Both the position numbers and the translations under genes were made by a program. From contig ONPG01000008.1 of assembly GCA_900319645.1 (NCBI GenBank), positions 643 through 64,642 on the forward strand: a stretch of 64,000 nucleotides of DNA, read 5' to 3'. Source of the DNA: an uncultured Bacteroidales bacterium. Its GTDB lineage: Bacteria; Bacteroidota; Bacteroidia; Bacteroidales; Paludibacteraceae. Below are positions 3,228 to 37,211 of this stretch, one piece after another. The notes below the pieces were generated by a model. The model ran no database searches. It was not told the DNA's origin and saw only the letters and a list, made by a program, of their open reading frames with translations. Positions within the stretch are counted from its first letter, which is position 1. Every line of letters starts with the position of its first letter.

Positions 3228-3243
3228 AGGGCGCTTCTAAAAA

Positions 3244-7724: not shown

Positions 7725-7765
7725 GTTATTTTATCATTTTTTGCAGAAAGAGGCATAAATAAGCA

Positions 7766-7798: not shown

Positions 7799-7826
7799 TT
7801 AAAAGGTCGGAAAAGAGGGGTGTTGA

Positions 7827-10800
7827 TTACGGCGTGACAATCACGTGAGCAGTTTTGTCCGTTCCCTCCGAACGCAGGAGGAGAATATAACTTCCCGCCG
7901 TGTGAGGGGTATAGATGGCGCTGTTGTCATAGTCCTGCGCATCGTATCCGTGTCCCAGGAGATCGTACCAATAAGCGGTACCTTTGCCCTGAATAGTGAG
8001 CGGGGCGTGCGGTTTGACAAGCGAGGGCAAGTTGGAGATTTGGGATTCATCCACCTTGGTCGGTACGAACGAACAGGTGAAGAGCCCCACTCCGTCGTTA
8101 CGCCAGAGGTACGCCGTATATTCCTCTCCGAACCGGAGGTTGGAGCCGGGCGTGTGGTAATTGAAGGACCTGGCACCCTCGATAGGTTGCCCCGCGACGT
8201 ACCACTGGACGGAATCGAAGACGAATCCGCCGTTGTAGTCGCTGTTGCGTATAGCAAGGACGTCGTTCCAGCGCTGGGTGATAACAGAGGAAGCGTACTG
8301 CATGGTCAAGGTGAAAGGAATGGTGACATTCCACTTCGGAAGAGAATCCTCAAGCAGCAATCTGCCTTCATACACGTTGGGAGTCAGTTCCGGATCGATT
8401 GCAATCGGAAGCACGTAATGGCCTTTGCGTTGCACATCAGCTGCCGGTGAGATAGATGGAATAGCAGGATCGGAGAACGTATAGGAGAAACGCAGGGAGC
8501 GTCCCCGGGTGATATCGTACTCCAGATTAAGCACCTTGTCTCCCCCACAAAGGATATAGGATGTCTGCGGCATGTTGACCAAAAGCGATTCATAAATCTC
8601 AAAATTGAGGATCCAGGTAGTGTCACAATTATCCGGGGAAACAGGTACCGTATCCAGCGTGTTTTGCGAATAGGAACGTCCGTGGTAAGCAAAGGGCAGG
8701 CTCTCGGGCAGAACCAATGTATCCTCGTATATACGCACCGGTTCGTTGAGAATGAGATAGATAATACTATCGCAGGACGTTGCAGCATTAAACAACACCA
8801 CGGAATCCGTGCCATAATCGAAATAGGCGGTGTCGGGTTTCTCGCTCCATTGATATCCCGCCTTACGGACGTCATCACAAAGGGTCACGGAGACAGTATC
8901 TCGCGTCTCTTTCAATTCGTCCAGATGCAAGGTATAGTGGACGGTAGAATCACACGTACCGCTTGTAACACGCAAAGTGATCGGGTAAGTACCTCCCGAG
9001 GAAGGAAAATCAAAAGCGGGAGCAGGTTCGTCCGACCAACCACCCGGCAGACCTTCGATATTCCACTCGTAGCTGTCGATATGGTAGATGCTGCTCTCTA
9101 ATGTATCGCCTTTCACGTGGTCGATCTCCTGCACCCAAGACTGTGAACCATCCAACTGCACGTGGTATTTGCCGGTAGCGCAGGACTTGGTAACCGCGGG
9201 TTTTTGCATGATAGCAACCGGATTGGTAGCCAGCGTAGAGGCATAGAGCGAGAAGAAGCAGGAACTATCCTGAACGAACATACAATCGACCACATAGAGG
9301 CTGTCATCCTGATAGCCCGCCTCAAAATGTTGTTCGTGGCCCAAGACATACTGCTCGGGCATTGTGCCGTCCGGCAAGCGGTATTTCTCGGAGGAAGCGT
9401 ATGCCCAGCGATAGACGAATCCATCCGGTGCTTCGAAAACAGGATTGACAGCACCACATTTCATTCCTTTGAGTTTGCCATCGGAACAGCTGAGTGTGAA
9501 ATAAGCGTAACCGGCGTGAGCCGTTTGCGCGCAATCAAAGGTGGTAAGACGGACGGTTAGTTTCTTGCCCTGATACTCGGGCTTCTTGAGGTTGACACCA
9601 ACGGTGGTCCATTCTTTCCATACCACATCTGAAGATCTCAGATTTGCTTTGGCAGCGGGTGTAAGATGCCATCCTTGCTCAGCGGCTCCAGGTTTTAAAC
9701 CTCCATTGGCATAGGCCGAGTTGACATTGAAATCCGCCTGACCACACTCTCCAATAGAGTTATTTCCGATTCGAATATCCAGTTTAAAGCGAGATTGAAT
9801 ATCATCGTCGTGACCAGAGCCATTCTCAAAAACAGGTGCGTATTTTAGTAATAATACAGAATAATCGATTGTATCCACATTAAAAGAATACTCAATTCGT
9901 TCAGTCTGGTTTCCTCCCTCCCAGTTACCAAGCCGCACGGATGCCAATTCACCATCCGGAATAGTGGGAAGCAGACCTTCTGTATGAACATCTCGCTCCA
10001 TCTTATCAAAATGGATAGTATGCCGACTACTGCCTTGAGCCGGACCATCATCCACCGCCGGACCAAGTATATAATTATTGAAATTATTTGAAGAACTGAA
10101 CCCGGTTCCAGTATAACATTTCGCCGTTTCTAAATTCAGATAATCGACACACATCTGGTCAGGATAATAGACGAGCTTGGAGATGGAGGTTTTCAGACTA
10201 TAAAGTCCCTCCGCACATTTCGCGCGAACGATAAAATCAGTCTGACCAATAGGGAGATTGGAGAAGGAAGTGGTATTTCCCGTCACAATCTTCGGTCCAA
10301 ACCATGTTTCAGTTTCATAGGAATATGCCGACACTTCATATTCCGCCGAAGTCCCCACCCATGAGAGGAGGGATGTTGTTCCCTGGATGGATAATGTCAG
10401 TCCGGCAGGGGCATCGCAAGGGCGCGTATCGAGAATAGCTATATTATCCACCATAGCTCCCGGTTGCTGCGTCTGGTTAGCCGTGTTCGCCCACACAAAA
10501 GCGAGATAGTGAGGTTTGCCATCGCATTTCTTATTCTTGATAGCCGCCTCACATTGTTTCCAGGTCTGGGATCCTCCGACATAGTCCATATTCGCCTTCG
10601 GTTGGAGGGTGACCACATAGTTTTCGTAGGCAGACGGAATACCACTGGAAGCAGCGATAGACCCCACCTTGACCGAATCGCCGGTATCGGGATCGACCAT
10701 AGGAATCCACAGCACATAGATACCATCAAAATTGCTTGCCACATTACCCATACCACAATAATCAAAGGTAAGGATGTAGTCATCGTTGGTAGAAAGATGA

Positions 10801-11102: not shown

Positions 11103-11118
11103 ACGCGCGGTTTTATGG

Positions 11119-14100
11119 TTAGTTCACTATCATTATCTGGGCTTTTGTTTCGCCCTTTGTATTTACCGATTTGAGTACAAAAACACCTCTATCATCGGGC
11201 ACTATCAACGTAGTATATCCCTGAGGGAGGGTATAGGAGCTATAATGTTGACCGGAGACGGTGTAATAACTTATTATGGCGGACTGCTCCATATATATAG
11301 GCAGTTTTTGCCCCGCATTGACAATTGTAGGATAAGGCGTTTGCTGCTCGTGATAGACAGGATAGATCGGGCAAGTAGCTATGCTCACGCTATCGGGACG
11401 GGTGAGTACTACGTAGTACTCGGACAAGGTATCAAGCGGCTGATAGAGATAAGAGCCAATCTCTCCCGCCAGAGGAACTCCGTTTTTGTACCACTGGAAT
11501 CGCGTGAACTTATATCCACCGTTAGCTTCCGGCGAAAGGAGAGTTAGCACATCATTCCATTTCTGCGCCACGACAGCGCTACTATAGCGGATTTCTACGT
11601 CCCGTGTCTCACGATAAACGCCGCAACAGAACTGATGGAATGCCAACTCAGCAGTATAGTATCCCGGCGTAATGTTGTTGGGATAGGGTATTGCAACAGT
11701 AGATACCGAAGAGTCGTAGATAACCGTATCACGCAGCTGAGGCGTATTGAACGTGATCACCAGACTATCGAAGACACCAGCCGTAATCGTGAATGGGATA
11801 AACAAGTTCTCATCATCCGCACAGAGGTAGGACAATGAATCTACGGAAGCATCCAAGCGCTGATTGACCGTCAGAGTCATATAAACCGCGCTATCGCAAC
11901 CATGAACGGACTTTAGCATAAAGAGCTGGTTGGTCATCGGATAGTTGTATGCATCACCGGCAATCACTACGCTACTATCCGAACAGATTGAGTCGTGGCG
12001 ATAGGTATCCTTCACCTCCGGCCAAACTTTCAAGTGAAGCGTGGATACGGAATCACATCCGGCAAAATTAGGATATACTCCTACATAAGTAGTATCGGTT
12101 TGGAACCATTTCTTGCCAAAATAGATCGGGCTTTCGGGGCATGTTTCATAGAAAAACTCCGTCTCACCAGGAATAATATTAGGCGTTATGATGGTATCAA
12201 TCCTGGTGCTATCGCATGCGTTTTCGACACCAATATAGGTTGTATAAATCACCTCTAATGTATCTCCCTCCGACCTACAGGTATATACCGGGCTCCAGTT
12301 GTATGACTCTGTGATAGAGCCGTCAGAGAGGCGTCTAAAGGACCAGTGTCCGTCTTCGGTCGGTTCGGAAGTGTGGTTTTCTTCGTCCTCGTATTTATAC
12401 ATCACATGCGAAGTATTGTGGAACCTAAGTTTACTGCTACACTCTTCATAGACGGGTTCGACGGTATAGGATGGCACCGGGAAACGCGGAGCGGAAATAG
12501 TGCTCACATCGAAGTAGCAGGAAGGATCTTCGATAAAGCTTACACGGCAGGTGTATTCCTGACGAGTAGGCTCAGCCGATAGTTCGCGATCGAACCAGAA
12601 AGGCTTATTACCCGGTGCATCAGGATTGCCTTTATACCACGCATAAGCGAATCCTTCCGGCGCAAAACACTCGATCTTGGCATCGTTGCCGCAATTCTCA
12701 GTCTCAATACGCGCTGAGGCGCAATCCACCGTTAAATAGGCATAGCCATAGTGTCCCGTTTGCGCACAATCGTAAGTAGTAAAGCGCACTTTGATATTTT
12801 GGCCGGCATAGGGCATCAGGTTGACTCCGATAGTAGTCCAATCTTTCCATGCAGCTTTATTATCCTTGGTTAAATTCCAACCGGCTTCCACACCATCGGA
12901 ATAAGAGAATACCGCCTGACCACAGGACTCATCAATCACATTGTCGTTCTCATCCAAAACCACCAAGTCAAAGGAAGGCTCTTCGTCGTGCGGGTGACCA
13001 CCCGGATTTTCCAGGACGACGGCATACTTGGCAATCAAGACGCCCTGGTTCTGCGCATCAACGGTAAAGTTATAGGTAATGGATTCGGCTTCAGCACCGT
13101 CGTTCCAGTTTCCTAACCGGACAGAAGCCAACGCTCCTTTAGGCACTGTAAACAACTGATCATCCGTACGCGGATCTGTCTCGGTAGGATCCATATGAAT
13201 CGTATGGCGGCTTTCCTCCGAATCGGGACCATTGTCAATAACACCTATATTATCATAAGGAGTAACACCTCCTGAAGAGCTTTTAAGCGGGTGGTAACCA
13301 TATGTGCAAACCACATTGGGACTATACAAATCCAGATATGCCACACAGTGATTCTCCGGACAATAGACCAGAATATTATTCTTGTAGCTGAAGTTGGATA
13401 CGAGGGAGCCGGCTTTACCGCACACTCGCACGTCATAAGTTCCCTCCATAATACGTTGTAGCACATAGGAACAATTCACACCGTCACGGGTATAGCCGTC
13501 CACGCCATCCCTGATACCATCCTGCCGACGCCAGGTAGAACTACCTATTTTGCGGTACTGTATCTCAAACTCATTCACCGCACCGGAACTCTCCCAGGAA
13601 ACAATCATCGTTGAATCGGCACAGACAGGTTCCGCCTGTACTTTCTTCGGCTTTTTGAGCGTTGCAGACCCTATCTGGATATTGTCGATACAGATACCGG
13701 ATTGGTGGATGTTTCCGTCAATATTTGCATTCACCCAAATGAACAGGATGGCAAAAACGAACCTCTTGGAATTGAGTCCGCTAACACGCACTTCATTAGA
13801 CAGAGCCACATTCTGCCATTGGTCGCTACCACATACGAACCGCTCTTTGGACTCGCCTAATTGCTCGCAAACCTGCGCAACCGCCTTGGGAAGTTCTCCA
13901 GACGTAGTTGATACGATATTATCCAGATACTGAGGATAGGTAGATGTAGTCAATGCCATCTCCGGACAAACGATCACATACAATTTCGAGTTCGTAGAAT
14001 CTCCCATTCCTTTCCAATCAAAACTGATGTCGTAGTTTTTCTGTTCGTCCGCATCCGGAAATTTAAAGCGCAGATAGGCAGCTACGATATTCGGCTGACT

Positions 14101-14334: not shown

Positions 14335-14364
14335 ATTTCTGATTTCAATTTAGTGAACTATAAT

Positions 14365-16572
14365 TTAGTATATTTGCTGTATATCTGCACCATTGGTACC
14401 GGTAATGACGAACTCTACACGACGGTTGAGTTGGCGTCCTTCTTCAGTATCGTTGTCCGCAATCGGCTCTTTCTCGCCCTTGCCTTCAGCGGTGATACGT
14501 TCCGGAGCTACCCCACGCTCGATGAGGTTGTTACGAACGGCATTGGCACGACCTTCCGACAAGATCTGGTTCGCCTCGTCCGAACCGACGGCATCCGTAT
14601 GACCGACGATATGAATAGTCACACCCTCGTTCTCCTGCATAAAGCGCGCCAAGTCAGCCATAGCTGCTTCGGACTGAGGCAGGATATAGGTCTTGTTGGT
14701 AGCGAAGAACAGGTTCTCTATCTTCACCTTGATACCCTCCTTGATAGCCTGTATAAAGAGGTCGATGGTGTCACGCTCGAAGAGGATGGTATCTTCCTTC
14801 GGCATATAGCCTGCAGCAGTCAGATGAGCAATATAATTGCCTTTGGTAAGCGGCGTCTCGACAAATCCGTCGTCGGCAGCCTGTGCTACGTAGAGCGAGG
14901 TGGTATCCTGGACCGTTGTCAGGCGCACATTGGCTGCCACGGGATCCTTGGTCTCGCCGTCGTAGATATTCATGCACAAGGTATAGACCACCGGAGCCGG
15001 AATACGTTTGAGAGCTATGCGCACCGTATCGTAGGTGAACTCCTCGACGCGGTGGGTGACAGCCTCAGCCGGATAATAACCGTTCTTGGAAGCCGAGACG
15101 CGGTAGTCACCCTCGGCTACACGCCCCACTTTGACCTGACCTTGTTTGTTGGTATTCTTGGTCTTTTTCAGTTTCGCCGAGTCGGTTACCTCGACGGTCA
15201 CACCGCCAAGAGCCAATTGGGAATCTGCGTCGTAGGCATAGATGCCCAGTCGCGGCTGCGGCTTCAGAGGCAGCGGACTCTCCACCACCTGTTTGCGCGG
15301 CAGACTGAACCACACCGCCACTTTCACGCCCGCCAGGAAGGGATTGACATTCGCGTTGGCGACAGAGGTAGTCATCAAAGCCGAGTTAACCGGGAAATCC
15401 AAAGGATTGGGAGTAACTGCCATCTGCATAGGAATATCCTGTGCACCGTCTGCCGGACGCCGGGTAATCGAGTTGAGCACGCCATAGTCCGCAAAAAGCG
15501 AAACGCGCAACTTGGGAAGAGCCTGGATCCATTGGTCAAGATTCACACCAATCTCCGCAGAAGCAGCCAGATTCAATCCGAATTTCACATTCGTCGAAGG
15601 ACGGGACAATTCGGCATCGTTGACCAAAGCGTGTGCGTACATTTCGGTCAGATCAAGGATCAGCTCTTTGTCCTCAATGGTCGTGGTGAAGCGGCCGGAG
15701 AGGGAAGATGTACCCATTATACCCATTCCTACTTTCACACCCGCCTGCCAGAAGAGCGGCACCTTTTTCAGCTCCATACCCAGCAAAACCGGCACTTGCA
15801 CGAAACCTCCGACAATGCGGTCGTTCACATTTTGGAAGGCGTAGGTATAGGTCATCGTGTTCGGATAAGGATTCATTCCGTAGGACAAGAGCATCGTGCC
15901 GTCAGGCTGGTTGGAGACAGCCATATTGGTGTTGTAGGTATTGAACTCCGCACCTACAGTCATCAAGAACTGCTTGTATCGCATCTGGTATCCGAGACCC
16001 GCTCCGCCACCGACAAATCCTTTGTCTTTGTTCAGGAAACCAACTGGATTGGGTGTGCCCGGGTTAAAGGAGATACCGGAAGTAAAGAGATTGCTATAGC
16101 CCACTTGTCCCCAGAAACCCAGACGGTGGTCAATATCACGATTCTGATAAGCCATGACGCGTTTGTTGTTCTTCTCGATAGCAGCTATCTGCGCCAGATA
16201 TTGCGCTTTCTCCTCCGCAGCCGACAATTCCGGTTGGGACTTGGCAGTCTTGGCGGATTTGGCAGCCGGTTTGGCAGCCGGTTTGGAAGAAGCATTTGCC
16301 TGTTTAGCCTTGGCTTTTGCCGCCTCTTTCTTGCGTTTTTCCTGCTCTTTCTTCTTCTGCGCAGCCGCTTTCTCACGGGCTTTCTGAGCCTGTGCTTTCG
16401 CTTTCTCGCGTTCCTTGAGTTTCTTGGCTTTCTCTTTCTCGCGTTGCGCTTTGGCCTTGGCTTTGGCATCAGCCGCATAGACAGCAGCCACACTCTCACT
16501 GGTTAGGGACATTACCGGGACGATAGTCGTCATCCCGATCAGCAACAACAGTATGTAGATTGTCTGTTTCAT
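14365..16572 (-). CDS. OmpA-family outer membrane protein with K/A/E-rich linker, beta-barrel-like domain and two CarboxypepD_reg-like domains
   Basis: 735-aa ORF with a signal peptide. It has a lysine/alanine/glutamate low-complexity stretch (KAKAKAQREKEKAKKLKEREKAKAQ...). Its C-terminal OmpA-like peptidoglycan-binding domain carries HIVGHTDAVGSDEANQILSEGRANAV...NRRVEF. Confidence 0.85.
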   Translation of the reverse strand: MKQTIYILLLLIGMTTIVPVMSLTSESVAAVYAADAKAKAKAQREKEKAKKLKEREKAKAQAQKAREKAAAQKKKEQEKRKKEAAKAKAKQANASSKPAAKPAAKSAKTAKSQPELSAAEEKAQYLAQIAAIEKNNKRVMAYQNRDIDHRLGFWGQVGYSNLFTSGISFNPGTPNPVGFLNKDKGFVGGGAGLGYQMRYKQFLMTVGAEFNTYNTNMAVSNQPDGTMLLSYGMNPYPNTMTYTYAFQNVNDRIVGGFVQVPVLLGMELKKVPLFWQAGVKVGMGIMGTSSLSGRFTTTIEDKELILDLTEMYAHALVNDAELSRPSTNVKFGLNLAASAEIGVNLDQWIQALPKLRVSLFADYGVLNSITRRPADGAQDIPMQMAVTPNPLDFPVNSALMTTSVANANVNPFLAGVKVAVWFSLPRKQVVESPLPLKPQPRLGIYAYDADSQLALGGVTVEVTDSAKLKKTKNTNKQGQVKVGRVAEGDYRVSASKNGYYPAEAVTHRVEEFTYDTVRIALKRIPAPVVYTLCMNIYDGETKDPVAANVRLTTVQDTTSLYVAQAADDGFVETPLTKGNYIAHLTAAGYMPKEDTILFERDTIDLFIQAIKEGIKVKIENLFFATNKTYILPQSEAAMADLARFMQENEGVTIHIVGHTDAVGSDEANQILSEGRANAVRNNLIERGVAPERITAEGKGEKEPIADNDTEEGRQLNRRVEFVITGTNGADIQQIY

Positions 16573-16577
16573 TGGCT

Positions 16578-17555: not shown

Positions 17556-17565
17556 AAATTGGCTG

Positions 17566-17596
17566 CAAAGTTACAAAAAAAATCTTATTTACGCAA
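17566..17596 (-). promoter_or_regulatory. Bacteroidota-type promoter (TTG-N20-TAACTTTG) for the barrel/OmpA/paralog operon
   Basis: The minus strand reads TTGCGTAAATAAGATTTTTTTTGTAACTTTG. It lies immediately upstream of the 16578..17555 ORF and downstream of the giant-gene terminator. Confidence 0.55.
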
Positions 17597-17660
17597 ATTT
17601 TTGTATATTTTTTTCATAAAAAAAGTTCTTTTTGTCAAATAGACGCATCGCGTGCGCGTA

Positions 17661-17700
17661 TATAAAACAAAGAGGTGCGCCCTCTCGGACGCGCCTCTTT
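17661..17700 (-). terminator. Rho-independent terminator after the giant cargo gene
   Basis: The minus-strand RNA reads AAAGAGGCGCG-UCCGAGAGG-GCGCACCUCUUU followed by GUUUUAUAUA. The stem has one internal mismatch. It starts ~24 nt after the stop at 17724. Confidence 0.6.
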
Positions 17701-17723
17701 GACTGATTATCAGAGGATTGGGA

Positions 17724-20700
17724 TTACCAAACCAAAACTCTGCCTACGTACTGTGTACCTACGCTATCCGAGATACGAACTTGGTAGATACCAGTTTGAT
17801 TGAATGCACTTACAGTAACAGCCGAAGCTGCAGGCACTTTCTCATGCTTGATGAGACGTCCAACCATATCGTGTACGTAGATATCTACCATACCGGTGAA
17901 GTTGCCCACTGCTGTTACTTGCTCACCAGCACGGATCACGTTCGGACGGAGAACAACTCCGTTGGTATTGATAGCCTCAATACCTTCCAAAGCATTGACC
18001 ACGAGCGCGTGAATCATCACAGCATCGCAGTGCTGTCCGACTACGAGTACGGTATCCATATAGGTGCCCGGCTCAGTACCCATCGGGTAAGAGATCGGAG
18101 CCTGACCCTCGGCGTACGGATAAGTAGAGTTCTCGTAGGTGAACGGCAGATCATCGGTAGTGATGGTAGTACGCATGTAGATGGTATCCTCAGCGTTGTA
18201 CCAACTCAGGACGAGAGAGATGATACTGTCGCATCCGGCAGTCGAAGGTACGGTGTCTCTATACATACCCGGCTCCGTGTAATTGCCGCCATTCCATGCG
18301 TAGCTGTCGCCTTGGCAAATAGTAGCTTTCTCCGGCTCTCCCGGCAGGATGGATACAACGCTCAACTGGAGTATTGCAATACTATCACATCCCGATACAG
18401 ATTGCAGTGTATCTTTATACTCACCCGGTATGTCGTAAACCTTGCCATTCCAGGTATAGGCATCGCCTGCGCAGATAGACTGCTTCAACGGTTGACCGGT
18501 GATCATATCCGAAACATAGAGTATCAGCGTAGCAATACTATCACAGCCTGCACCGGACAGCAGTGTATCTTTGTATGTGCCGGGCTGCGTGTAGCGCTTG
18601 CCGTTCCATACATATGCACCACCGTGGCAAATAGCTTCCTCAACAGGAGTACCCTCAATCATCGGAGCTATCGTCAGAACGAGAGTTACCACGCTGTCAC
18701 AACCCTGAACAGAGATAAGGGTGTCTTGATAGGTTCCGGCTGCGTCATAGTCTTTGCCGTGCCATCTATAGGTTCCGCCATGGCAAATGGTTTCGCGGAT
18801 AGTAGCACCTATCTTCATTTCCATTACCGTCAGTTCGAGAACGGCAAGACTATCGCAACCACCGAGAGCCTGCAAGGTGTCTTGGTAAACACCGGTTTGG
18901 TTATAAACCTTGCCGTTCCAGGTGAAGGTATTGCCGAAGCAGATTTCCTCTTTCTGCGTCTCACCCATGATGATGTCAGACATCTTCAATGTGAGGGTCA
19001 CGATACTATCGCATCCCGAAACAGACTGGAGCGTATCTTTGTAATCACCCGGTTTGTCATAAACCTTACCATTCCATACCAAGGAACCGCCATGGCAGAT
19101 AGTCTTTTCCTCCTGACCTACGATCTGGTCTTTGACCGTCAGGCTGAGATAAACTATACTGTCGCAGTTATAAATAGATACAAGCGTATCCGTATATAAG
19201 CCGGTGCGGTTGAACTCCTTGCCATGCCATTTATATACTCCGCCATAGCAGATGGTATCGAACTCGGTAGTCTCCATTATCGGTGCAACGAACAGGTTCA
19301 GCGTTACGATACTATCGCAGTGCTCTACCGATTGGAGTTTGCGGCGATAAACACCCGTACGGCTCTTGCCGGAGAAGTTCTCATCCGAATACGTATCACC
19401 TGCGCAAATAGTGTCATAGATGACCGTCTCAGGAGCCTCAAAGATCTTCACATTCAGCGTATAGATACTATCGAGATACCCTTTGGTAGTAGCGTCGAAG
19501 TTATCCGCCATATCAATACGTTTGAATATAGAATCGCCAGCTATAGATTTATCACCATCAATATGGAAGCCAATCTTATCAATATCTTCGTACTGACAAG
19601 CCTGCGCATTTTCTACGATATTATCGTAGTAATTCACACGGATATTATCCAGATGGATTGCGCAAGGATACGGAGATGACAGATAGGTATCTGCCTCACG
19701 ATAGAATGCCACCTTGATATTCTTGCCTGCATACTTAGCAAGATCGAAGCGCACGCTGGTCGGAGCAAACGGAATATCACGGAGCTGGTTACCGGTCGGG
19801 AATGTGTTATTCCAGATACCGATGATATTCTCTTTCTTCCAGGTCTTACCACCATCTTCAGAGATCACGATCATGAAGGTGAAGTCATCCGCCATGTTCG
19901 CGTCTGTAGCCGGAGCAGCAGAAGGCGTGGTAGTACTGGAGCAAGCGGTCAACGCCATATCGAATGTAAGGTGTGCGTTCTTGGTAGAATCCTCCAGACT
20001 AATCGTCGGCGAAATCATCCAATAGTAATCGTAATCCGTCGTAGCAGTCGCGGAGCTGGAGTAGAAGACAGCTGCATAGTGCGCACCCGGGATACCGGCA
20101 TCCGTGGTTACACGGCGCCAGCCGTAGGATGTGCTATTAGCACCCGTGAGTTCTACATCCGTGCTGTCGATTACCGTGAGAGCCGGATTGGTAGCGAAGC
20201 TCCAACCTACTTCGAGATCGGTTGCACCGAAGGTCTCCACGAAGAACGGTTGACGCGCAGTAGTGAAATTAGCGTTCTGCGAGAACTCACTCTCACCGAG
20301 GTCTTCTTCACAAATCGTGCGTACACGCCATACATAATCGGTAAATGCTTTCAATCCATCAACTACAGCCGAGTTGCTATAAACGGTATCGTTGAAGACG
20401 AATGCCGAGTCGTTCGCATAGGTGTAGTCGGTAGATACTTGCAGGATATAGCTTGCTGCGCCTTCCGGAGCCTTCCAGCTGAGTTTAGCAGAGGTAGCTG
20501 CAATCTCATCAGCAGTCAGTTCTTCCGGTGTCTCGCAATGCTGGATAGCGGAGAACGAAACATCATCAATCCATATATAGTCATATGTTGATTTGTTCTC
20601 AGCGCCCTTAGCCCAAAGCGTTGCCATGAAGGCTACATACTTACCTTGAGCACCGGTGAGTGCTACTTTCTTCGGCTGGAAGAGGAAGTCGTTTGCCTCA

Positions 20701-23700
20701 TTGACATAGTCGCTTGTTGAGAGTGTACCATTATAGGTAATTGTATCAATAGGCACGAAGGTCGTAGCATCCATCGGGTCGGTCATTGTACCGACGATGA
20801 CAGACTTCGAGTAGTAGTACTCTTTCGTTGCAGCAGAAGAACCCAAAGTATATTGGGTAGAGATCTTACCCGTCGAAGCAGAAGCATAAGCCGGACGCAT
20901 CCAGAAGTTCACCTGGAGGGTGTCGTATGCTGCGATGTCTTCAATAGCCGGCATAGCAGCATAGGTCTGATATGTTGTACCAGAGGCATATAGACGGAGC
21001 GCGTATGCACCGGAGTGCGAGTAAACACTTGTTCCGTTAGCATAGTTATACTCGTAGGTACTAACAGCACTGGTGCCTGCGTTTTCATACGTCCAGCAGA
21101 GTGTCTGTTTGTACGTATCCGATGTCTGTGCCGGAAGAATTCTCCAGCCATCCGCTAACTCGAAACCGTTCTTGTAATCCGGACCCACAGCAACACACTC
21201 GGTATAGAATGGCTGATATGCAGTAGTCGAAGTATTGATTGTACCATTCGTCTGATACATATACCATTGATAACCGGTGGAGGGTTTGAGTGTATTAACC
21301 GTATAGGTCGTAACACTACCCGGCACTGTATCTTGCAGGATGATACTGTCTCCACCTTGGTTGGTAAGAACTACAACCGACTGGATATTCGGATGTTTAA
21401 CCGTCCAGTTGAAGGTAGCCGAATTATAGGTTACATCCGATGTCGAAGCACCCGAAGGAGCGAAGAGGTTATCACCTACCGCTTTGATTTTCAGGTTATC
21501 TACGAAGAACAAACCATAAGCCGGTTGGAAGAGGACGATATACTTACCAGTTGCACCAGCCAACGGCAACTGCATCTTCTGCCAATAGCGGTTTCCTGTC
21601 GGATCCGAACTTACCAGCGTACTGGTAGTCAACTGGCTCGTTGTATAGGTATAAGTTACCGTATCAATAACCTGAAGCGTTGAGAAGTCATTCGGGTCGG
21701 TCAGTGTACCTACTACAAGCGACTGGCAGTAGCTTGCGCCGAGATAAAGAGTACTGATAATCTTTCCGGCATTGGAAGCAGCCGTCTCATCCTGGTTAGC
21801 CAAGCAGCGTCCCCAGAACTCGATCATCATCGTATCCAGATCACAGTTGAGTTGTGGCAGCACGATATAGGTCTTGACGGTCTCCGAAACATAGGTACTC
21901 GTGGTATAAACACGGAGCGAACCGTAACTATCAGCATAACCAATCTCGCGGTGGTTATAGGTATCAGAAGGATTACCTAAGGTAGAGTAATAGTCGTGCC
22001 CCTTGGATTGCCATAGCCACTGATAACCATTAGAGAACGAACCCGTATAGGTTGTACCTGTAGTGAAGCACTCCGGTTTCAAATAAGCGGTATCCGCAGC
22101 TGCACCGGCGAGGAGGTCGTTCTGAACGACCTCTGTCGGGTCATCGAAATCCCAGAAGAATTCGCCGTTAGCATTAGCCTCCATCGGCAGACACGGAGTG
22201 CGGAACTCTCTGCTGTCACTTACCTTGAATTTCGTATCCGATGGTGCGTTGATAGCAATGAGAACAGCGGTGTAGCCGGTTTGCGGTTGGAGGCCGGTTA
22301 CCTCTTGCGAAGTAGCAGTAAGGTTCTCGTATTTAGCCAAGGTGTCACCATTTTCTTTCAAGATATAGAGATTCCACGGGCCACCCATTTCACTCCAGTT
22401 CACAGTAGCTTTTTTAGCCTCAGCTTGAACATTTTTGATAGATACCAAACCATACCCCTTCGGTGCACCCAATGTTACATCATCGAAGTGGATATAACGT
22501 GTGCTAGAATCACTCGGTTTCGGCAAACGGATAACCATTTGCTTGTTAGCTACCGTAGCGGAGTCGAGATCCAACGAGATTTGAGTCCAGAACCAATCAT
22601 TTGCTTCGGTCAATCCACCTTTCACTTTCGGTATTACCGGGAGGTAAATGGTAGTAAGAACCTGATAGGTCTCAAAGCCTTTGTTCTTGTCAATCGTACC
22701 TACCTCGACATTGCATGCATAGTTGGTACTGATACCGATGGTATCTTTTGTGGAATTGTAACTTCCATAACCGCTACGTACTTTAAACTCGAACGAACGA
22801 TCATGTGCCTCATCCACAGCCGGGAATATAGCATAGCCACCCCAATATGTAGAAGTTGCTTGCCAGCGGAGCACACCGTTCTTCGGGTTATCCTTCGGAC
22901 CATATGCATAGATAGCCGACGAGGTATTTGCCATCTGGTACGGATAGTAAGAGGTGTAGCTGGTAGTAGCCGAACCGCCTTCATAACCAATTCCGATTGC
23001 CGGGTTGATCCAATAGGTAGTAGAGCTCGAACCTTGGCAGAACTCCCATCCTTCGTCTTTCTCGAATCCGAAGTAATATTTATCTTTGAAATAGTACTGC
23101 GTACGAACTTTAGTCGGTTTTGAAGTCCATTCGCTGTTTCCATCCTCACCACCGCAAACAGTGCGAGCGTAAACTTGGTAAACAGTTCCCGGCTCCAAGC
23201 CTTTAATTTCGTAAACAACAGAATCTGCGTCAAAGATCATATTCGTAGTATCCAGATAAGCTTCTGCGTCGAATTTATCTGCTGTATAAATCGAATCAAC
23301 TACGTAAGCCAATTGCCATTTCTTGTTTTCTTCCTTAGCAGGAGTAATCACAATCTCAGCAGAATACATAGACGAGTTACCAGCTTCCAGGGTCGGTGCG
23401 AAACATGAAGGCGGCATACCAAGACGAACATTATCCAAGTACATATCGCTTGCCATTTCCAATTCCTCAGCCAGACCGGACGAGAATGCGATACGGCTAT
23501 GTACCAGGTTATAATCCGCCAAAATCAGATCTTTATGGAAGAACACATTACCATTATCCATATAGAGTGTATCGAACGGAGCAAAACCTGCTGCTGAATC
23601 GAGCACATCATCCATTGTACCGATGTAAAGTACAGATTTACCGGTAGTACTATATGAACGAGCGTCAAAACTCAACATATAGTCAGACAAATTACCTTGT

Positions 23701-26700
23701 ACTTTAGGCATAATAGCTACGCTACGGTGCGAAGTAGAAGAAGACCACAACTCCAATTGCTTACCATCTACAGCACCGGAGGTCGGATTCATGACTTGCG
23801 GATAGGTCTTGGTAGCAGTTGCATAGTCTTCGAATTGCCAGCAATCCACAACTTTTGCGTTCGTTGCATATGCTTCAAAGTTCTGTTTGTACGGCACTTT
23901 GAAACCATCCTCCGGGCAGAGGGTTGTGAAGAATGCATACGCCATCGAAATATCGCTGCTATCGCCACCATCACACATTGCCTGTGCATATACATAGTAT
24001 TGTTGTGCAGGCTCAAGACCGGTGATCAGGACAGAATCGGTCTTCGTCACAATAGAGTCAACTAACCATTGATAGTTAGCCTTAGCAGTATCTGCAACGA
24101 TTTTGTCTGCAAGCATCATGCGATAGCTATTACTATATTGCTTCCAACTGATCATACCAGCACGATCAGAAACGCTATCTACCTTAAATTCCGTAACAGG
24201 ACGACAAGTCGGGATCGGCGTTACAGAGATAGAAGCGATGAATGAATAGTTATAGATTACAGAACCGGAGCACTCATTGGTAAACATAATATATCTACCC
24301 ATGTTTTGCTGGTAGTCACCTTGATAGTCTTCGAGCGAAATAGAGTACGGAGCATAAGCGGTGTGACTCAATGTCACTGTATCGATTACGACGAAAGTAT
24401 TCAGGTCACTCGGATCTGTTACCACACCGACGATCAATTGGTCGCCATACGAAGCCGTACTATATGCGCGAGCATAGAAGTTCACTTGGTACTTGCTAAT
24501 ATCCTGTACATCCAACTCCGGCATAATAGCATACGCGCCATTATACTTGGTAGAAGTAGAGGATGTCGGACTATACGAATATACACAGAGCACACTATCT
24601 TTGTTATGCAAATAGGTACTAGAGGTATATACGTACGGGATATAGGAAGTAGTAAGCGAAGCGTTTCCAGACTTGTTGCCCACGGTCCAGCAAGGCAAAT
24701 AACGGGTAGCAGACGAACCGGATACATAACCATCGTTTTTGGAGAAAGTGATGGTACCGAGTGCTTCCGGAGTAACAGCCTTACACGGTGTCTTGAATGA
24801 GAATTCAGACCATTGCGAAATGCCATCCTCGCAAAGTGTAGCTACAGCCACATAGTAATCCGTTTGCTCTTTCAAACCGGTAACCACTTTGTTGCGCACG
24901 TCAATCGTATCATAATAAATGATATGCGAAGCTGCAGCAGAATCCTTAGCCAGTGAATCCACATTGATCAATGCCAATTGGTCAGCAGTAAACGCAGCAG
25001 TGTCCGAAACGAGCAACAACCACTCGTTATCCCCACGGATACCGGCACTGATACGAACTTGCTCCGAGGTCAAACCGGAATAACTCGGTTTCGGCAGCGG
25101 GCAATTGAGCTTAATAATAGACACATCATCCAGATAAATCGTCGGAGCTGCATTGTAAGCAGTACGCCATGCAAAGTACTTAGCCCCTGCAGGAATCGTA
25201 TCCGCATACTCGCTCAGATCCATCGTCATAGTAACAATGCTACCGGCACACTTGATCGAATCCAGCACAACGAAAGTACTGAGATCTTCAGGGTCGGTCA
25301 TCACACCCGGCAGGATGTAATAGGAAGACGAGCCGTAGTACGAGAAGGTTACCGCCAGTTCCGTCAACGAGTTGCAATCAATTTCCGGAGCAGCGACCCA
25401 AGTAGGACTATTGGCAGCAGTCGGATTGAGACGATAGCAGTTTGTACCCGAAGAAGCATAAGAGGTGGTCTTGTAGATATACGGGATATAGGTTGTAGCA
25501 GCCGATGGGTTACCATTTCCTACAGTCCAGCACGGAGCCTGATAATCTACATTATACGATGTACCGCTCGGATAATTCTCGAAGGTCTCTTTGTTCGGTT
25601 TATTCGGATCCAGTTTAACACATCCAGTACGGAAACTTGCAGTTGACCAAATAGTATCGCAAGACGGCTGTACATAGAAGGTGTACAGTTTGACGGGTTC
25701 CAGACCAGTAGCCTGATAAGCTTTACCAATAACGGTATCCAGAGCAATGAAGTTGGTATCTTGCATTACCTTAACAATCCACTGATCGTTGGTAGCTTTA
25801 CCATCCCACTTGATACTAATGCTATTTACTTGAATATCGGTAGCCTCGAAATTCCAAGCCTCGATACAGTTGTTCGGCTTAATCGATACATTATCAATAT
25901 AAATATCACTATTCATTTCCAGATTTTCTCCCAAACCGGATGTAAAAGCAATATTATTGTATGCTAATGTATAATTAGACAAATCCAAACGCACTTGGGT
26001 AAACGTATTACCGCCATCCATATAGATTGTGTCGATTGCTACGAATGAGGTCCAGTCATTGATATCGCCCATCGAACCTACATAAACTACGGATTTGGTA
26101 GCAGTTCCATAAGAACGTGCGTCGAAAGAAAGAACCACCTGAGAATAATCTACAGCCAGACCCGGCAACATAGCCACATTACGATGCGTAGTAGAAGTGG
26201 ACCACAACTCGAGCATGTTACCATCCTGAGCACCGGAAGAGGGTTTCAAGATCTTCGGATAGCCGGTACCTGTTCCGTAGTCAGCCACTTGCCAGCAAGC
26301 AAAACCGTCTTCATAGGCTCCGGTTGAATAACTTTCAAAGTTCTCGGAGAACGGAATCGGGAAGTCGGTCGGACAAGGGGTTTTGAAAGATGATTGAACC
26401 CACCAAGTTACTTCCTCACCACATAACGTGCGTACGTATATATAATAAGGAGTATTGTAATCCAAACTATCGAATCCGAAAGTCGGATTGGTTTGGGCAT
26501 CCTCCCAACTCAGGGTATCAGCGAAGAGAATATTCTCATTTGCTGCAATAATCTCGAAACTATCTTGGAGTTGTTTCTCGGTGAGTTGTTTCGTTGCCAA
26601 AATAAACTCCCAAGCAGTAGCAATGGATTTATCCCAACTAATGGTAACACTATCGGATGTAGCATCCATGATGATATTTACCGGCGGAAGACATTTACTC

Positions 26701-28934
26701 ATCTCCTGTACGGTGACATCATCGATGTAGTTGATTGTGTTCTTGCCATTCACATCGCTCCAAACGATGGCAATGATACCTTCGGGACCGTTATAGTTCG
26801 CAAAGTTGGCATAGCACAGGGTATAACCGGTCGAAGCCACCTTGTAATCACTGACAGGGATGAAGGTATTGATATCCAACGGGTTGGTCATGATACCGAG
26901 TGTAGCGTGCGCTTGCGTCGGCGTAGAAGAACCGCTGAGATAGAACTTAACCTCCATACCAGCGAGTGAATCTATCTGCGGCAAGGTAATCCAAGCGTCA
27001 TTTCCGTTGGTCAAAGACAGCGTCAGGCATGACGAACTTGCATGTGCGTTAGAAGTAACCAAGTGAGGCAACTCATCTATATTAGAGAACACGCCCACAC
27101 CTACGGGGTAAGCGATAGCGCTCTCACCGATAGTATAGGTAGTACCGTTCTTCTGCTCAAAATCAATGCTATAAGGCACTTCTTTCTTGCCAGAGATGGT
27201 TACAAACGGATAGCGATACGACCAATCGGAGGTCTGCGCTCCGCTAACAGCCTGTACATACACATAATAGGGACGATTCCAAGAATGATCTGCCTCTAAT
27301 GCCTCGCACAGATAGGAATTGGTAGTCACCGTGGTCTGTGCTACTATTTGAGCAGGAGTAGCTTTAGCAGGATCAACCTCCTCGTTGGTAATCATCACAT
27401 TATAGCTGGACGAAGTTCCTTTCCAGGATATCTTAGCCCAGGTATCACGCGGATTCACGTAGAGGGCAGTCGGTTTCTGCAAATCATCCTTATACTCAAT
27501 AGATATTTCGTCAAGGAAGAAGATGTTCGGTTCATTAAAAGCACTTAAGAATGCTACATATACACCGTTTCCTTTGTAGGATCCAAGATCCACAACATTC
27601 TCCTGGAATGTATTAGCGGCCCAAATACTAACTGTGTCAACCGGAACAAAGGTAGTAATATCCTCTGCATCCTCCATCACACCCACAATAATGCTATGTG
27701 CATAGTTATCACCAGAGAATTCCGCAACCGAGCCCCAGAAGCGAACCCGGCACTGGTTGAGTGCAAACTGTGCATTGGCCGTATCGGCTAAAGCCGGAGT
27801 AGCTACATAGGCATACTTGTTAGCAGGAATAGCATTCGTTGCCTTCGGTTCCAGAACGTTACCACTGGAGAAAACAACGCAGGATGTAGCATTAGGCGAA
27901 TACTTACCACGATCATCCAATTTCAGACCAACGTTGACAAACGGGTTGTAACTACCGGTATTGCCACCCCACGTCCACTCAAGATCACGACGAAGTATAC
28001 CTGCCTCATACGGCATATCAAAACCATAGGAATAAGGCACATTCTTGGTAGCTTTTACACGGAAATAATAGGCACCTTGCTGCTCGGGATCCTCGCTATT
28101 CCACAATGAGTTCTCTGCCTCGCAAATGGAACGCAAATAAATGTAATAGTGTTCACCGGAAACGAGGTTTACTTCTACATTCTGCTTCAATCCGTCAATC
28201 AGGTCGTGATAGACTACTATTCCGAGCGAATCAGGGATGAGATTGATGGTGTCCGGTCCAATGATCTCTTTTGTAATGATCATCTCATAGTTAACCGCAT
28301 CCCAACTGGCGTTCCATGCGACCTTGACTTTGCCGGCACCCAGACTGTTGATACTGATGTCGTGCGGTACGGTACAGATAGGTGCCGAACGCAACTTCAC
28401 ACTGTCCAGCACGATACCGCGCCCCAGATTATCCGTTCCTTCAAAAGCAACCTGATAACTCTCGTTCACCTCAGGAAGCTCCAAACGGATTTTCTGCCAG
28501 TTGGACGCAGCCGAACTGAACTCAGCCAATTTTTTCCACTTGGCATTCTGGCTTGTACGATACAGAACCCGGAGCGTGTCGCGGTCGGCAGTCCATTTCG
28601 GATTGGCATACCAGAACGTCAGTTCAGGTTGATACACCTTTTCCGGACTCAGATCCATCACCTTACTAACAAGTCGGGTGACATAACCTTCCGTCTCTCC
28701 GGATGTGTTACGCAAACAAGCGCGCTTGGAACCTTGATAGACCGTAGCAGGATAAGCAAGATTATCATCCTTGCTCTCTACAACCCACGGGTGGTTTCCC
28801 ACTACGAACTCTTGGGTCCAAACACTGTCCTGAATACCATTCTCGAAACCATCATCAATAACGATGGTTTGGGCATAAACGCCCATCGTTGCAGCTATTA
28901 CAGCCCACAACATTAGGAGTAAATGTTTCTTCAT
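17724..28934 (-). CDS. Giant (3736-aa) multidomain cell-surface protein, putative T9SS cargo/adhesin
   Basis: Uninterrupted 11.2-kb ORF with a signal peptide (MKKHLLLMLWAVIAATMGVYAQ). About 11 iterations of a jelly-roll-like module begin with F-E/D-x...W motifs, and each ends in a hydrophobic-x-(hydrophobic)-D-D/N-(hydrophobic) strand; the first ten are followed by an Fn3-like segment. Then come ~9 Cys-containing ~52-aa repeats and a 77-aa C-terminal tail (..TGIYQVRISDSVGTQYVGRVLVW) resembling a type A T9SS CTD. Confidence 0.85.
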   Translation of the reverse strand: MKKHLLLMLWAVIAATMGVYAQTIVIDDGFENGIQDSVWTQEFVVGNHPWVVESKDDNLAYPATVYQGSKRACLRNTSGETEGYVTRLVSKVMDLSPEKVYQPELTFWYANPKWTADRDTLRVLYRTSQNAKWKKLAEFSSAASNWQKIRLELPEVNESYQVAFEGTDNLGRGIVLDSVKLRSAPICTVPHDISINSLGAGKVKVAWNASWDAVNYEMIITKEIIGPDTINLIPDSLGIVVYHDLIDGLKQNVEVNLVSGEHYYIYLRSICEAENSLWNSEDPEQQGAYYFRVKATKNVPYSYGFDMPYEAGILRRDLEWTWGGNTGSYNPFVNVGLKLDDRGKYSPNATSCVVFSSGNVLEPKATNAIPANKYAYVATPALADTANAQFALNQCRVRFWGSVAEFSGDNYAHSIIVGVMEDAEDITTFVPVDTVSIWAANTFQENVVDLGSYKGNGVYVAFLSAFNEPNIFFLDEISIEYKDDLQKPTALYVNPRDTWAKISWKGTSSSYNVMITNEEVDPAKATPAQIVAQTTVTTNSYLCEALEADHSWNRPYYVYVQAVSGAQTSDWSYRYPFVTISGKKEVPYSIDFEQKNGTTYTIGESAIAYPVGVGVFSNIDELPHLVTSNAHASSSCLTLSLTNGNDAWITLPQIDSLAGMEVKFYLSGSSTPTQAHATLGIMTNPLDINTFIPVSDYKVASTGYTLCYANFANYNGPEGIIAIVWSDVNGKNTINYIDDVTVQEMSKCLPPVNIIMDATSDSVTISWDKSIATAWEFILATKQLTEKQLQDSFEIIAANENILFADTLSWEDAQTNPTFGFDSLDYNTPYYIYVRTLCGEEVTWWVQSSFKTPCPTDFPIPFSENFESYSTGAYEDGFACWQVADYGTGTGYPKILKPSSGAQDGNMLELWSTSTTHRNVAMLPGLAVDYSQVVLSFDARSYGTATKSVVYVGSMGDINDWTSFVAIDTIYMDGGNTFTQVRLDLSNYTLAYNNIAFTSGLGENLEMNSDIYIDNVSIKPNNCIEAWNFEATDIQVNSISIKWDGKATNDQWIVKVMQDTNFIALDTVIGKAYQATGLEPVKLYTFYVQPSCDTIWSTASFRTGCVKLDPNKPNKETFENYPSGTSYNVDYQAPCWTVGNGNPSAATTYIPYIYKTTSYASSGTNCYRLNPTAANSPTWVAAPEIDCNSLTELAVTFSYYGSSSYYILPGVMTDPEDLSTFVVLDSIKCAGSIVTMTMDLSEYADTIPAGAKYFAWRTAYNAAPTIYLDDVSIIKLNCPLPKPSYSGLTSEQVRISAGIRGDNEWLLLVSDTAAFTADQLALINVDSLAKDSAAASHIIYYDTIDVRNKVVTGLKEQTDYYVAVATLCEDGISQWSEFSFKTPCKAVTPEALGTITFSKNDGYVSGSSATRYLPCWTVGNKSGNASLTTSYIPYVYTSSTYLHNKDSVLCVYSYSPTSSTSTKYNGAYAIMPELDVQDISKYQVNFYARAYSTASYGDQLIVGVVTDPSDLNTFVVIDTVTLSHTAYAPYSISLEDYQGDYQQNMGRYIMFTNECSGSVIYNYSFIASISVTPIPTCRPVTEFKVDSVSDRAGMISWKQYSNSYRMMLADKIVADTAKANYQWLVDSIVTKTDSVLITGLEPAQQYYVYAQAMCDGGDSSDISMAYAFFTTLCPEDGFKVPYKQNFEAYATNAKVVDCWQFEDYATATKTYPQVMNPTSGAVDGKQLELWSSSTSHRSVAIMPKVQGNLSDYMLSFDARSYSTTGKSVLYIGTMDDVLDSAAGFAPFDTLYMDNGNVFFHKDLILADYNLVHSRIAFSSGLAEELEMASDMYLDNVRLGMPPSCFAPTLEAGNSSMYSAEIVITPAKEENKKWQLAYVVDSIYTADKFDAEAYLDTTNMIFDADSVVYEIKGLEPGTVYQVYARTVCGGEDGNSEWTSKPTKVRTQYYFKDKYYFGFEKDEGWEFCQGSSSTTYWINPAIGIGYEGGSATTSYTSYYPYQMANTSSAIYAYGPKDNPKNGVLRWQATSTYWGGYAIFPAVDEAHDRSFEFKVRSGYGSYNSTKDTIGISTNYACNVEVGTIDKNKGFETYQVLTTIYLPVIPKVKGGLTEANDWFWTQISLDLDSATVANKQMVIRLPKPSDSSTRYIHFDDVTLGAPKGYGLVSIKNVQAEAKKATVNWSEMGGPWNLYILKENGDTLAKYENLTATSQEVTGLQPQTGYTAVLIAINAPSDTKFKVSDSREFRTPCLPMEANANGEFFWDFDDPTEVVQNDLLAGAAADTAYLKPECFTTGTTYTGSFSNGYQWLWQSKGHDYYSTLGNPSDTYNHREIGYADSYGSLRVYTTSTYVSETVKTYIVLPQLNCDLDTMMIEFWGRCLANQDETAASNAGKIISTLYLGASYCQSLVVGTLTDPNDFSTLQVIDTVTYTYTTSQLTTSTLVSSDPTGNRYWQKMQLPLAGATGKYIVLFQPAYGLFFVDNLKIKAVGDNLFAPSGASTSDVTYNSATFNWTVKHPNIQSVVVLTNQGGDSIILQDTVPGSVTTYTVNTLKPSTGYQWYMYQTNGTINTSTTAYQPFYTECVAVGPDYKNGFELADGWRILPAQTSDTYKQTLCWTYENAGTSAVSTYEYNYANGTSVYSHSGAYALRLYASGTTYQTYAAMPAIEDIAAYDTLQVNFWMRPAYASASTGKISTQYTLGSSAATKEYYYSKSVIVGTMTDPMDATTFVPIDTITYNGTLSTSDYVNEANDFLFQPKKVALTGAQGKYVAFMATLWAKGAENKSTYDYIWIDDVSFSAIQHCETPEELTADEIAATSAKLSWKAPEGAASYILQVSTDYTYANDSAFVFNDTVYSNSAVVDGLKAFTDYVWRVRTICEEDLGESEFSQNANFTTARQPFFVETFGATDLEVGWSFATNPALTVIDSTDVELTGANSTSYGWRRVTTDAGIPGAHYAAVFYSSSATATTDYDYYWMISPTISLEDSTKNAHLTFDMALTACSSTTTPSAAPATDANMADDFTFMIVISEDGGKTWKKENIIGIWNNTFPTGNQLRDIPFAPTSVRFDLAKYAGKNIKVAFYREADTYLSSPYPCAIHLDNIRVNYYDNIVENAQACQYEDIDKIGFHIDGDKSIAGDSIFKRIDMADNFDATTKGYLDSIYTLNVKIFEAPETVIYDTICAGDTYSDENFSGKSRTGVYRRKLQSVEHCDSIVTLNLFVAPIMETTEFDTICYGGVYKWHGKEFNRTGLYTDTLVSIYNCDSIVYLSLTVKDQIVGQEEKTICHGGSLVWNGKVYDKPGDYKDTLQSVSGCDSIVTLTLKMSDIIMGETQKEEICFGNTFTWNGKVYNQTGVYQDTLQALGGCDSLAVLELTVMEMKIGATIRETICHGGTYRWHGKDYDAAGTYQDTLISVQGCDSVVTLVLTIAPMIEGTPVEEAICHGGAYVWNGKRYTQPGTYKDTLLSGAGCDSIATLILYVSDMITGQPLKQSICAGDAYTWNGKVYDIPGEYKDTLQSVSGCDSIAILQLSVVSILPGEPEKATICQGDSYAWNGGNYTEPGMYRDTVPSTAGCDSIISLVLSWYNAEDTIYMRTTITTDDLPFTYENSTYPYAEGQAPISYPMGTEPGTYMDTVLVVGQHCDAVMIHALVVNALEGIEAINTNGVVLRPNVIRAGEQVTAVGNFTGMVDIYVHDMVGRLIKHEKVPAASAVTVSAFNQTGIYQVRISDSVGTQYVGRVLVW
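17958..19409 (-). repeat. In-frame array of ~52-aa two-cysteine repeats (8 well conserved, 1 degenerate) within the giant gene
   Basis: The consensus is ICxGxxYxWxGKxYxxxGxYxDTLxSxxGCDSIxxLxLxV. Repeat boundaries were counted from the translation. The first Ile codon was checked against the nucleotide sequence at 19407-19409. Confidence 0.8.
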
Positions 28935-37210: not shown

Positions 37211-37211
37211 G

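Follow-up and report, generated by a model that had tools for sequence, protein, structure and literature searches.

The T9SS (type IX secretion system) attachment complex combines two surface proteins that bear C-terminal domains (CTDs) with two outer-membrane barrels, in the pairs PorU-PorV and PorZ-PorQ. The ghpA-ghpB-ghpC genes of Aureispira encode a giant T9SS substrate of Ig-like repeats, an outer-membrane barrel and an OmpA-type peptidoglycan binder, and GhpB together with GhpC was proposed to form the basal body of GhpA (bioRxiv 10.1101/2024.01.29.577165). Type B CTD proteins of Flavobacterium johnsoniae have cognate PorP/SprF-like carrier barrels encoded beside the cargo (PMC12618676), and in the PorP-PorE-PG1035 system of Porphyromonas gingivalis (PMC9143113) a CRD-OmpA_C protein connects the barrel to peptidoglycan. 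PorE itself consists of TPR, beta-propeller (WD40), CRD and OmpA_C domains (PMC12773672). SprF and PorG have a periplasmic C-terminal tail whose Cys-Xaa-Cys motif forms a disulfide with Cys343 of GldK (PMC12635249). Here we describe a five-gene locus, G1 to G5, in a 64,000-nt stretch of DNA (hereafter the window) from an uncultured rumen Bacteroidales bacterium of the Paludibacteraceae (GenBank assembly GCA_900319645.1, contig ONPG01000008.1, positions 643 to 64,642). The locus is an undescribed variant of the known T9SS cargo-plus-anchor systems, not a wholly new kind, and it departs from their layout at four points: its barrels are of a different family, a PorE-like CRD-OmpA_C module is fused to one of them, its CTDs are type-A-like, and it includes two conserved members of a very large unnamed protein family. 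An earlier inspection of the letters of this DNA (the sequence-only reading) had held that the locus maps to no described system, a view that goes too far, given the layout that it shares with ghpA-ghpB-ghpC and PorP-PorE-PG1035. We propose, with about an even chance of being right, that the locus encodes a T9SS-dependent surface assembly in which G4 and G5 would be held by two dedicated barrels, G2 and G3, and tied to peptidoglycan, the giant G1 being displayed with or beside this base.

The open reading frame (ORF) list of the window contains the five genes, all on the minus strand:

17724-28934, minus strand: G1, giant, 3736 amino acids (aa)
16578-17555, minus strand: G2, barrel, 325 aa
14365-16572, minus strand: G3, barrel-CarboxypepD_reg-OmpA fusion, 735 aa
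11119-14334, minus strand: G4, 1071 aa
7827-11102, minus strand: G5, 1091 aa

Public gene callers place the G2 start at the GTG at 17531, which shortens the protein from 325 to 317 aa. G2, G3, G4 and G5 are separated by gaps of only 5, 30 and 16 nt, indicating that these four genes form an operon. Conservation across the loci of 39 GTDB species and 76 metagenome loci, which together with distant loci reached by look-up made up the related set, shows that all five are real genes and not chance ORFs.

Conservation of the gene order, which the sequence-only reading had singled out for a survey, proved extensive. The order giant-G2-G3-G4-G5 was complete in 33 of the 39 species loci, was cut by contig ends in five more and recurred in L045 and L047, two of the distant loci; L038 had G4 and G5, the paralogous pair, in swapped positions. 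All named homologues came from uncultured Paludibacteraceae or Bacteroidales metagenome-assembled genomes, mostly of ruminant origin. Between species, identity to the window copies was 47-60% for G2, 57-71% for G3, 52-65% for G4 and 53-66% for G5. In contrast, the giants upstream of G2 shared 22-32% identity with the window G1 in most of the species loci and 50-69% in seven of them. The conserved unit is thus the four-gene operon G2-G5, beside which the giant varies.

At E≤1e-3 the G4/G5 profile retrieved 19,084 cluster representatives, and at E≤1e-30 it retrieved 3,296 (clusters at 50% identity). Of the 150 best matches, nearly all were full-length proteins of 1000-1250 aa, and a few members were giants that start with a G4-type central domain. 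There is no Pfam or NCBIfam model for this very large G4-like family and no named member. The distant loci were arranged as follows:

L045 and L047: same five-gene order as in the window
L048: barrel, G4-like gene, giant
L049: three consecutive G4-like genes
L050: barrel, followed by a giant of 5002 aa that has the central domain at its N-terminus
L051: G4-like gene, then a 4434-aa giant

In L045 (16606-21548), the five genes are succeeded by another barrel-CRD-OmpA gene, the third, and by polysaccharide export genes of Wza/Wzc type. Among the metagenome loci, 32 of the 76 were usable, having at least 2.5 kb on each side of the G4-like block. A G2-type barrel was found in 30 of these 32, a barrel-OmpA fusion also in 30 and a giant in 24. 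A second layout, barrel, G4-like, barrel-OmpA, G4-like, barrel, recurred in the metagenomes with no giant nearby. These counts and the giant-free layout make the linkage of G4-like proteins with G2-type barrels the tightest and most general one, and G4-like proteins appear from this genomic association to be the primary partners of the barrels.

The giant G1, a secreted protein, starts with a signal peptide and an N-terminal MAM domain. About ten units, each MAM-like plus fn3, follow and reach approximately residue 3000 in the internal repeat map (fn3, 121.5 bits in Pfam); after them come the two-Cys repeats, then a spacer and, at the end, a type A CTD. Its mapped parts are:

28383-28826, minus strand: MAM domain, residues 37-184 (PF00629, 46.5 bits, cut-off 26.4)
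18195-19487, minus strand: about nine two-Cys ('GCDS') repeats of 52 aa in an array, residues ~3150-3580 (45-55% identity in self-BLAST, and Cys spacing)
17727-17957, minus strand: type A T9SS CTD, residues ~3660-3736 (TIGR04183 on the isolated tail)

Against the TIGR04183 cut-off of 23 bits, the tail scanned by itself reached 26.8 and the entire protein 19.3, and PF18962 of Pfam gave just 15 bits (cut-off 27). The two-Cys repeats are common to G1, G4 and G5, as the sequence-only reading had stated and as BLAST, the repeat map and a hidden Markov model (HMM) confirmed; the repeat HMM built from the G4 family matched the G1 array five times at 34-39 bits.

The giants differ in the type of their tail. 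Every true orthologue of G1 terminates in a short stretch of some 30 aa, KA[VI]KFIxxxxVYILxNGxxYxxTGxKV (or KAVKMIENGQLFIIKNGVKYNAQGVVVK), with no type A CTD there, and the same short tail ends nearly all other giants encoded upstream of G2 in the species loci (L004-L042). The window G1 parts from these orthologues just after 'EGIE', where a full type A CTD takes the place of the short tail. Among the distant loci, the giants of L045 and L048 have CTDs very like that of G1, and the giant of L047 has the short tail. Neither Pfam nor NCBIfam holds a model for this tail. The idea that it is a truncated type A CTD was rejected, because hhalign aligned only a hairpin of 9 to 14 residues at 4-8% probability. 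The short tail also terminates unrelated secreted proteins in L050 (3336-5429 and 6153-8495). Judged by these sequence comparisons, the giant is the variable element of the locus.

The sequence-only reading described the membrane partners as a barrel and a barrel-CarboxypepD_reg-OmpA fusion, and matches to PF13568, PF13620 and PF00691 agree with it. G2 is a member of OMP_b-brl_2 (PF13568, 32.1 bits, cut-off 27), a model matched by 29 of the 43 members of the G2/G3 family. The AlphaFold2 (AF2) model of G2 is a barrel of roughly 12-14 long strands with a predicted local distance difference test (pLDDT) score of 79.8 and a disordered tail at residues 302-325, the conserved, basic and cysteine-free KSYxYD..RKRGGNQ. 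Foldseek retrieved with this model only generic small barrels of 8 to 10 strands at template modelling (TM) scores ≤0.30, including a Legionella Dot/Icm porin, Ail, OpcA, Pla/OmpT and OmpX, and thus named no family. G3 begins with a signal peptide and a Lys/Ala/Glu-rich stretch; its barrel comes next, then two CarboxypepD_reg domains and finally OmpA_C:

15301-16137, minus strand: barrel, residues ~146-424 (BLASTP against G2, 25% identity over 296 aa, E 3e-12)
14743-15243, minus strand: tandem CarboxypepD_reg-like domains, residues ~444-610 (PF13620, 35.7 bits)
14422-14709, minus strand: OmpA_C peptidoglycan-binding domain, residues 622-717 (PF00691, 75.7 bits, cut-off 27.2)

By their alignment and family matches, G2 and the G3 barrel are paralogous outer-membrane barrels of PF13568 type. 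OmpA-like chains of the PDB match the OmpA_C domain of G3 down to E 1e-23. The PorE model NF052230 (T9SS_PorE) scored 79.6 bits on G3 against a cut-off of 600 and covered only model positions 428-599 of 648, which align with the C-terminal half of G3; G3 is not a full-length member of the PorE family, its barrel standing where PorE has the TPR and WD40 domains. The Lys/Ala/Glu-rich stretch of about 80 aa (residues ~35-115, window 16230-16470), located between the signal peptide and the barrel, keeps its composition in all homologues and presumably forms a periplasmic helix. Consistent with the claim that the barrels do not belong to PorP/SprF, PF11751 and TIGR03519 gave no match at E≤10 among 43 G2/G3 members in Pfam and 36 G2-family members in NCBIfam. 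Membership in PorP/SprF, PorG, PorT, PorQ or PorV was likewise rejected by the lack of any Pfam or NCBIfam match at E≤10 and of any match among PDB sequences.

A close likeness in gene arrangement is that to Aureispira, where the giant T9SS substrate is also followed by a barrel gene and then by an OmpA-type gene. This correspondence raises the possibility that G2 and G3 form an outer-membrane and peptidoglycan basal body of G1, with G4 and G5 as accessory or independent adhesins that merely share the operon. The giant stands directly upstream of G2 in nearly all species, and L026 retains only a giant and a G3-like gene, both as such a basal body would predict. However, barrel plus G4-like modules occur without a giant within 10 kb (L099, L103 and L112), G1 has its own candidate promoter and terminator, and the giants are non-orthologous with two types of tail, which makes a conserved contact with the barrels hard to place. 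We therefore consider a GhpB/GhpC-type base for G1 itself unlikely. There are also differences in the components: GhpB and GhpC are reported homologues of PorP and PorE, whereas the present barrels are of PF13568 type and have no PorP/SprF match; the OmpA module is here fused to a second barrel and lacks the N-terminal domains of PorE; and two conserved CTD proteins of 1.1 kaa are added.

These two added proteins, G4 and G5, are full-length paralogues (27% identity, E 9e-85 in BLASTP) that fall into no Pfam family. From its N-terminus, G4 comprises the N-module, fn3 and the central domain, next Ig-like domains, then two-Cys repeats and a further Ig-like domain, and it ends in the CTD. Its AF2 model (pLDDT 80.2) is a string of beta-sandwich domains that ends in a seven-strand unit, and Foldseek matched this model best to fragments of the Aureispira grappling-hook protein GhpA (E 1.5e-14) and next to MAM-Ig-fn3 ectodomains. 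No sequence relative of G4 was found in the PDB. The following segments were mapped:

12697-13368, minus strand: G4 central domain, residues 323-546, characteristic of the G4/G5 family (195 bits against G5, no PDB sequence relative)
9468-10172, minus strand: G5 central domain, residues 311-545 (G4-family HMM)
11122-11349, minus strand: G4 divergent type A CTD, residues ~996-1071 (orthologue tails, hhalign, seven-strand model)
7830-8060, minus strand: G5 divergent type A CTD (tail HMM, orthologue tails, hhalign)

The central domain contains the invariant motifs SRHTxHxD, RLGNW and DCxxxxHxxYxY. According to the sequence-only reading, one N-terminal module was common to all three large proteins. 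This was not confirmed, as the N-module HMM of the G4 family finds G5 (53 bits) and misses the MAM domain of G1, so that homology of the two modules was rejected; PF00629 in turn has no match in G4 or G5. Among the other families that had been suggested for the locus, fn3, OmpA_C and CarboxypepD_reg were found, and PorQ, PorT and choice-of-anchor J were not, the last (NF038128) reaching 18.7 bits on G4 against a cut-off of 30 and having no match in G5.

The suggestion that all three tails are type A CTDs held for G1 directly; for G4 and G5 it failed on the window tails themselves and was recovered only through orthologues and profiles. TIGR04183 matched 24 of 40 G4/G5 orthologue tails at E≤1 (best E 3.1e-7), an HMM built from G4/G5-type tails picked up the CTD of G1, and hhalign against the alignment of the giants' CTDs gave 93% probability for the G4 tail and 91.5% for that of G5. 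The type B CTD model TIGR04131 matched no tail and no whole protein. By these profile comparisons, the tails of G4 and G5 read as divergent type A CTDs, visible only via orthologues and profiles. Taken together, G1, G4 and G5 are Sec-exported, all-beta, multi-domain proteins with type-A-like CTDs. The description of G4 and G5 as two paralogous cargo proteins was right about paralogy and about the type-A-like CTDs, and it missed the main pattern, that both are conserved like the barrels and stand almost always beside G2-type barrels even where a giant is absent.

The pairing of two CTD proteins with two barrels, conserved to an equal degree and in a fixed order, recalls the T9SS attachment complex. 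G4 and G5 could retain their CTDs and be seated on G2 and G3 in the manner of PorU on PorV and of PorZ on PorQ. The four would then make up a surface machine specific to this lineage, by which the giant and other cargo are processed or assembled. The invariant His, Asp and Glu residues of the central domain would suit such a machine, and the unmodelled short tail on the giants and on other secreted proteins of the clade would need a handler. On the other hand, the AF2 model of G4 contains beta-sandwich domains only and no enzyme-like fold, and G4-like genes occur in one to three copies per locus and also as parts of giants, which better suits structural proteins. Unlike PorU-PorV and PorZ-PorQ, the locus encodes neither peptidase nor beta-propeller domains, and its barrels are not detectably FadL-like, FadL and TodX appearing at low probability only in the Foldseek search with G2. 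A processing or assembly role of this type is in our judgement quite improbable.

The C-terminal tails of the barrels offer a different comparison. Right after the last strand, each of the four distant small barrels found by look-up terminates in CVIC, CVRC, CHC or CRC:

L045, 6947-7777: twin-Cys barrel
L047, 3286-4212: twin-Cys barrel
L048, 9009-9896: twin-Cys barrel
L050, 8927-9835: twin-Cys barrel

Among the G2-type barrels of the metagenomes, 13 of 37 distinct tails had a twin cysteine (CxC or CxxC), for example those of L056, L085, L093, L099, L112, L116 and L118. The distant barrels thus resemble SprF and PorG, with CxC or CxxC placed directly after the last strand. The G2 tail of the window differs from these: cysteine is absent from the last 25 aa of the window copy and of all 158 clade G2 proteins examined. 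No family-level similarity of G2 to SprF or PorG was detected. The locus contains no core T9SS gene, in agreement with the sequence-only reading, and two genes elsewhere in the window, standing among housekeeping genes, encode the lipoproteins GldH and GldB:

36749-37312, minus strand: GldH (TIGR03511 in NCBIfam, 97.8 bits, cut-off 78.7)
56299-57303, plus strand: GldB (TIGR03514 in NCBIfam, 210 bits, cut-off 190)

GldB and GldH serve as markers of gliding motility (PMC10515386), and their presence fits a host with T9SS or gliding machinery. Such markers were unexpected in an uncultured rumen member of the Paludibacteraceae. They and the SprF-like twin-Cys tails of distant barrels are what one would expect if G1 were an SprB-like mobile adhesin and G2 its SprF-like carrier on a GldK track, and in the sprCDBF operon, as in the present locus, a giant surface protein and a small barrel are encoded together with accessory proteins. 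Such a gliding apparatus is nevertheless very unlikely here, because the clade's G2 tails lack cysteine, neither a type B CTD nor a PorP/SprF match was found, and OmpA_C in G3 would pin the complex to the peptidoglycan, which argues for a static rather than a moving structure. Finally, although OmpA-like proteins and PF13568 barrels are common housekeeping proteins of the outer membrane, so that G2 and G3 might be a porin and an OmpA-like tether of the general envelope and the large proteins unrelated glycan- or host-binding neighbours, the linkage kept across 39 species, distant loci and two gene layouts, the operon-like gaps of 5 to 30 nt and the occurrence of G2 homologues only in the context of such loci leave next to no likelihood that the genes form no functional unit.

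In the surface assembly that we favour, G1, G4 and G5 would cross the outer membrane through the T9SS translocon. Once exported, G4 and G5 would pass to the two dedicated barrels and be held on the cell surface, the barrels serving them as cognate carriers and anchors, a part that PorP/SprF-like barrels play for type B CTD proteins. Via its OmpA_C domain, G3 may tie the complex to peptidoglycan, so that a single polypeptide would cover what PorP and PorE do. In relatives, the periplasmic twin-Cys tail of the small barrel probably links to the GldK/PorK lipoprotein, and in the window's clade the basic Cys-free tail may have replaced it. The giant G1 would be a variable fibre or adhesin expressed from its own promoter, which most likely joins or adjoins the base; this is the least certain step. 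The carrier and anchor roles are suggested by the precedents of PorP-PorE-PG1035, of the PorP/SprF shuttles encoded beside their cargo and of the GhpB/GhpC basal body. As in PorP-PorE-PG1035 and the F. johnsoniae shuttles, the cargo genes adjoin private barrels that would hold the cargo on the surface, and as in the former a CRD-OmpA_C module would connect barrel and peptidoglycan. In contrast to these systems, the CTDs are type-A-like and have no TIGR04131 match, the barrels come from a different family, and barrel and PorE-like module are combined in one polypeptide, G3.

Several observations weigh against this assembly. Proteins with type A CTDs are described as being handled by PorV, cleaved and attached to anionic lipopolysaccharide (A-LPS), so that a private barrel is not needed (PMC12618676, PMC9143113), and the barrels of the locus are not members of PorP/SprF. 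The window tails of G4 and G5 match no curated CTD model at E≤10. Because the giants carry either a type A CTD or the unmodelled short tail, a tail-specific contact between giant and barrel is unlikely. L026 deviates from the common order, as a giant with a canonical type A CTD is followed directly by the G3-like gene (L026, 692-12205), and G2, G4 and G5 are absent within 10 kb. Core T9SS genes of the host were not seen in the 64 kb examined.

The layout described by the sequence-only reading, a five-gene minus-strand locus with short gaps, two candidate promoters and two candidate terminators, was borne out by the ORF list and by inspection of the sequence, from which the following signals were read:

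29108-29138, minus strand: candidate G1 promoter of Bacteroidetes type, TTTG-N19-TAATTTTG (consensus match only)
17566-17597, minus strand: candidate promoter of the G2-G5 operon, TTTG-N20-TAACTTTG (consensus match only)
17670-17700, minus strand: candidate terminator 3′ of G1, hairpin followed by a T run
7765-7799, minus strand: candidate operon terminator 3′ of G5, strong hairpin with a 15-bp stem followed by a T-rich run

Both promoter candidates fit the -33/-7 consensus of Bacteroidetes. An invertible promoter 5′ of G1 was considered and rejected, as only weak AT-rich inverted repeats were present and none enclosed the promoter. A tandem repeat of 11 nt (TAATAACCCAA, 4.9 copies, 93% matches) is located at 29356-29409, about 220 nt upstream of the G1 promoter, and could be a protein-binding array or a slippage-prone tract. 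Elsewhere in the window, the G+C content falls to 0.34 at 62-64 kb, and the ORFs at 59553-60890 (minus strand) and 61748-63220 (plus strand) belong to no Pfam or NCBIfam family.

The breadth of the G4-like family invites a wider proposal, which we advance tentatively and hold to be doubtful. G4-like proteins and G2-type barrels may constitute an unrecognised, widespread second class of T9SS cognate cargo-carrier pairs, in which private barrels of PF13568 type would take the place of PorV in capturing divergent type-A-like CTDs. The barrels would be tethered either to GldK/PorK by the twin-Cys tail or to peptidoglycan by the fused PorE-like module, and the base would display hypervariable giant fibres in rumen and gut Bacteroidales. 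Under the existing rules for T9SS cargo, a type A CTD leads to PorV and A-LPS, and a type B CTD to a private PorP/SprF barrel. The present locus suggests a third arrangement, where type-A-like CTD proteins seem to be genetically locked to private barrels of another family, some with an SprF/PorG-like twin-Cys tail. The rapid turnover of the giant beside a conserved base looks like surface variation under selection. Rumen Paludibacteraceae are abundant and uncultured, and their surface fibres probably matter for attaching to plant particles or to other cells.

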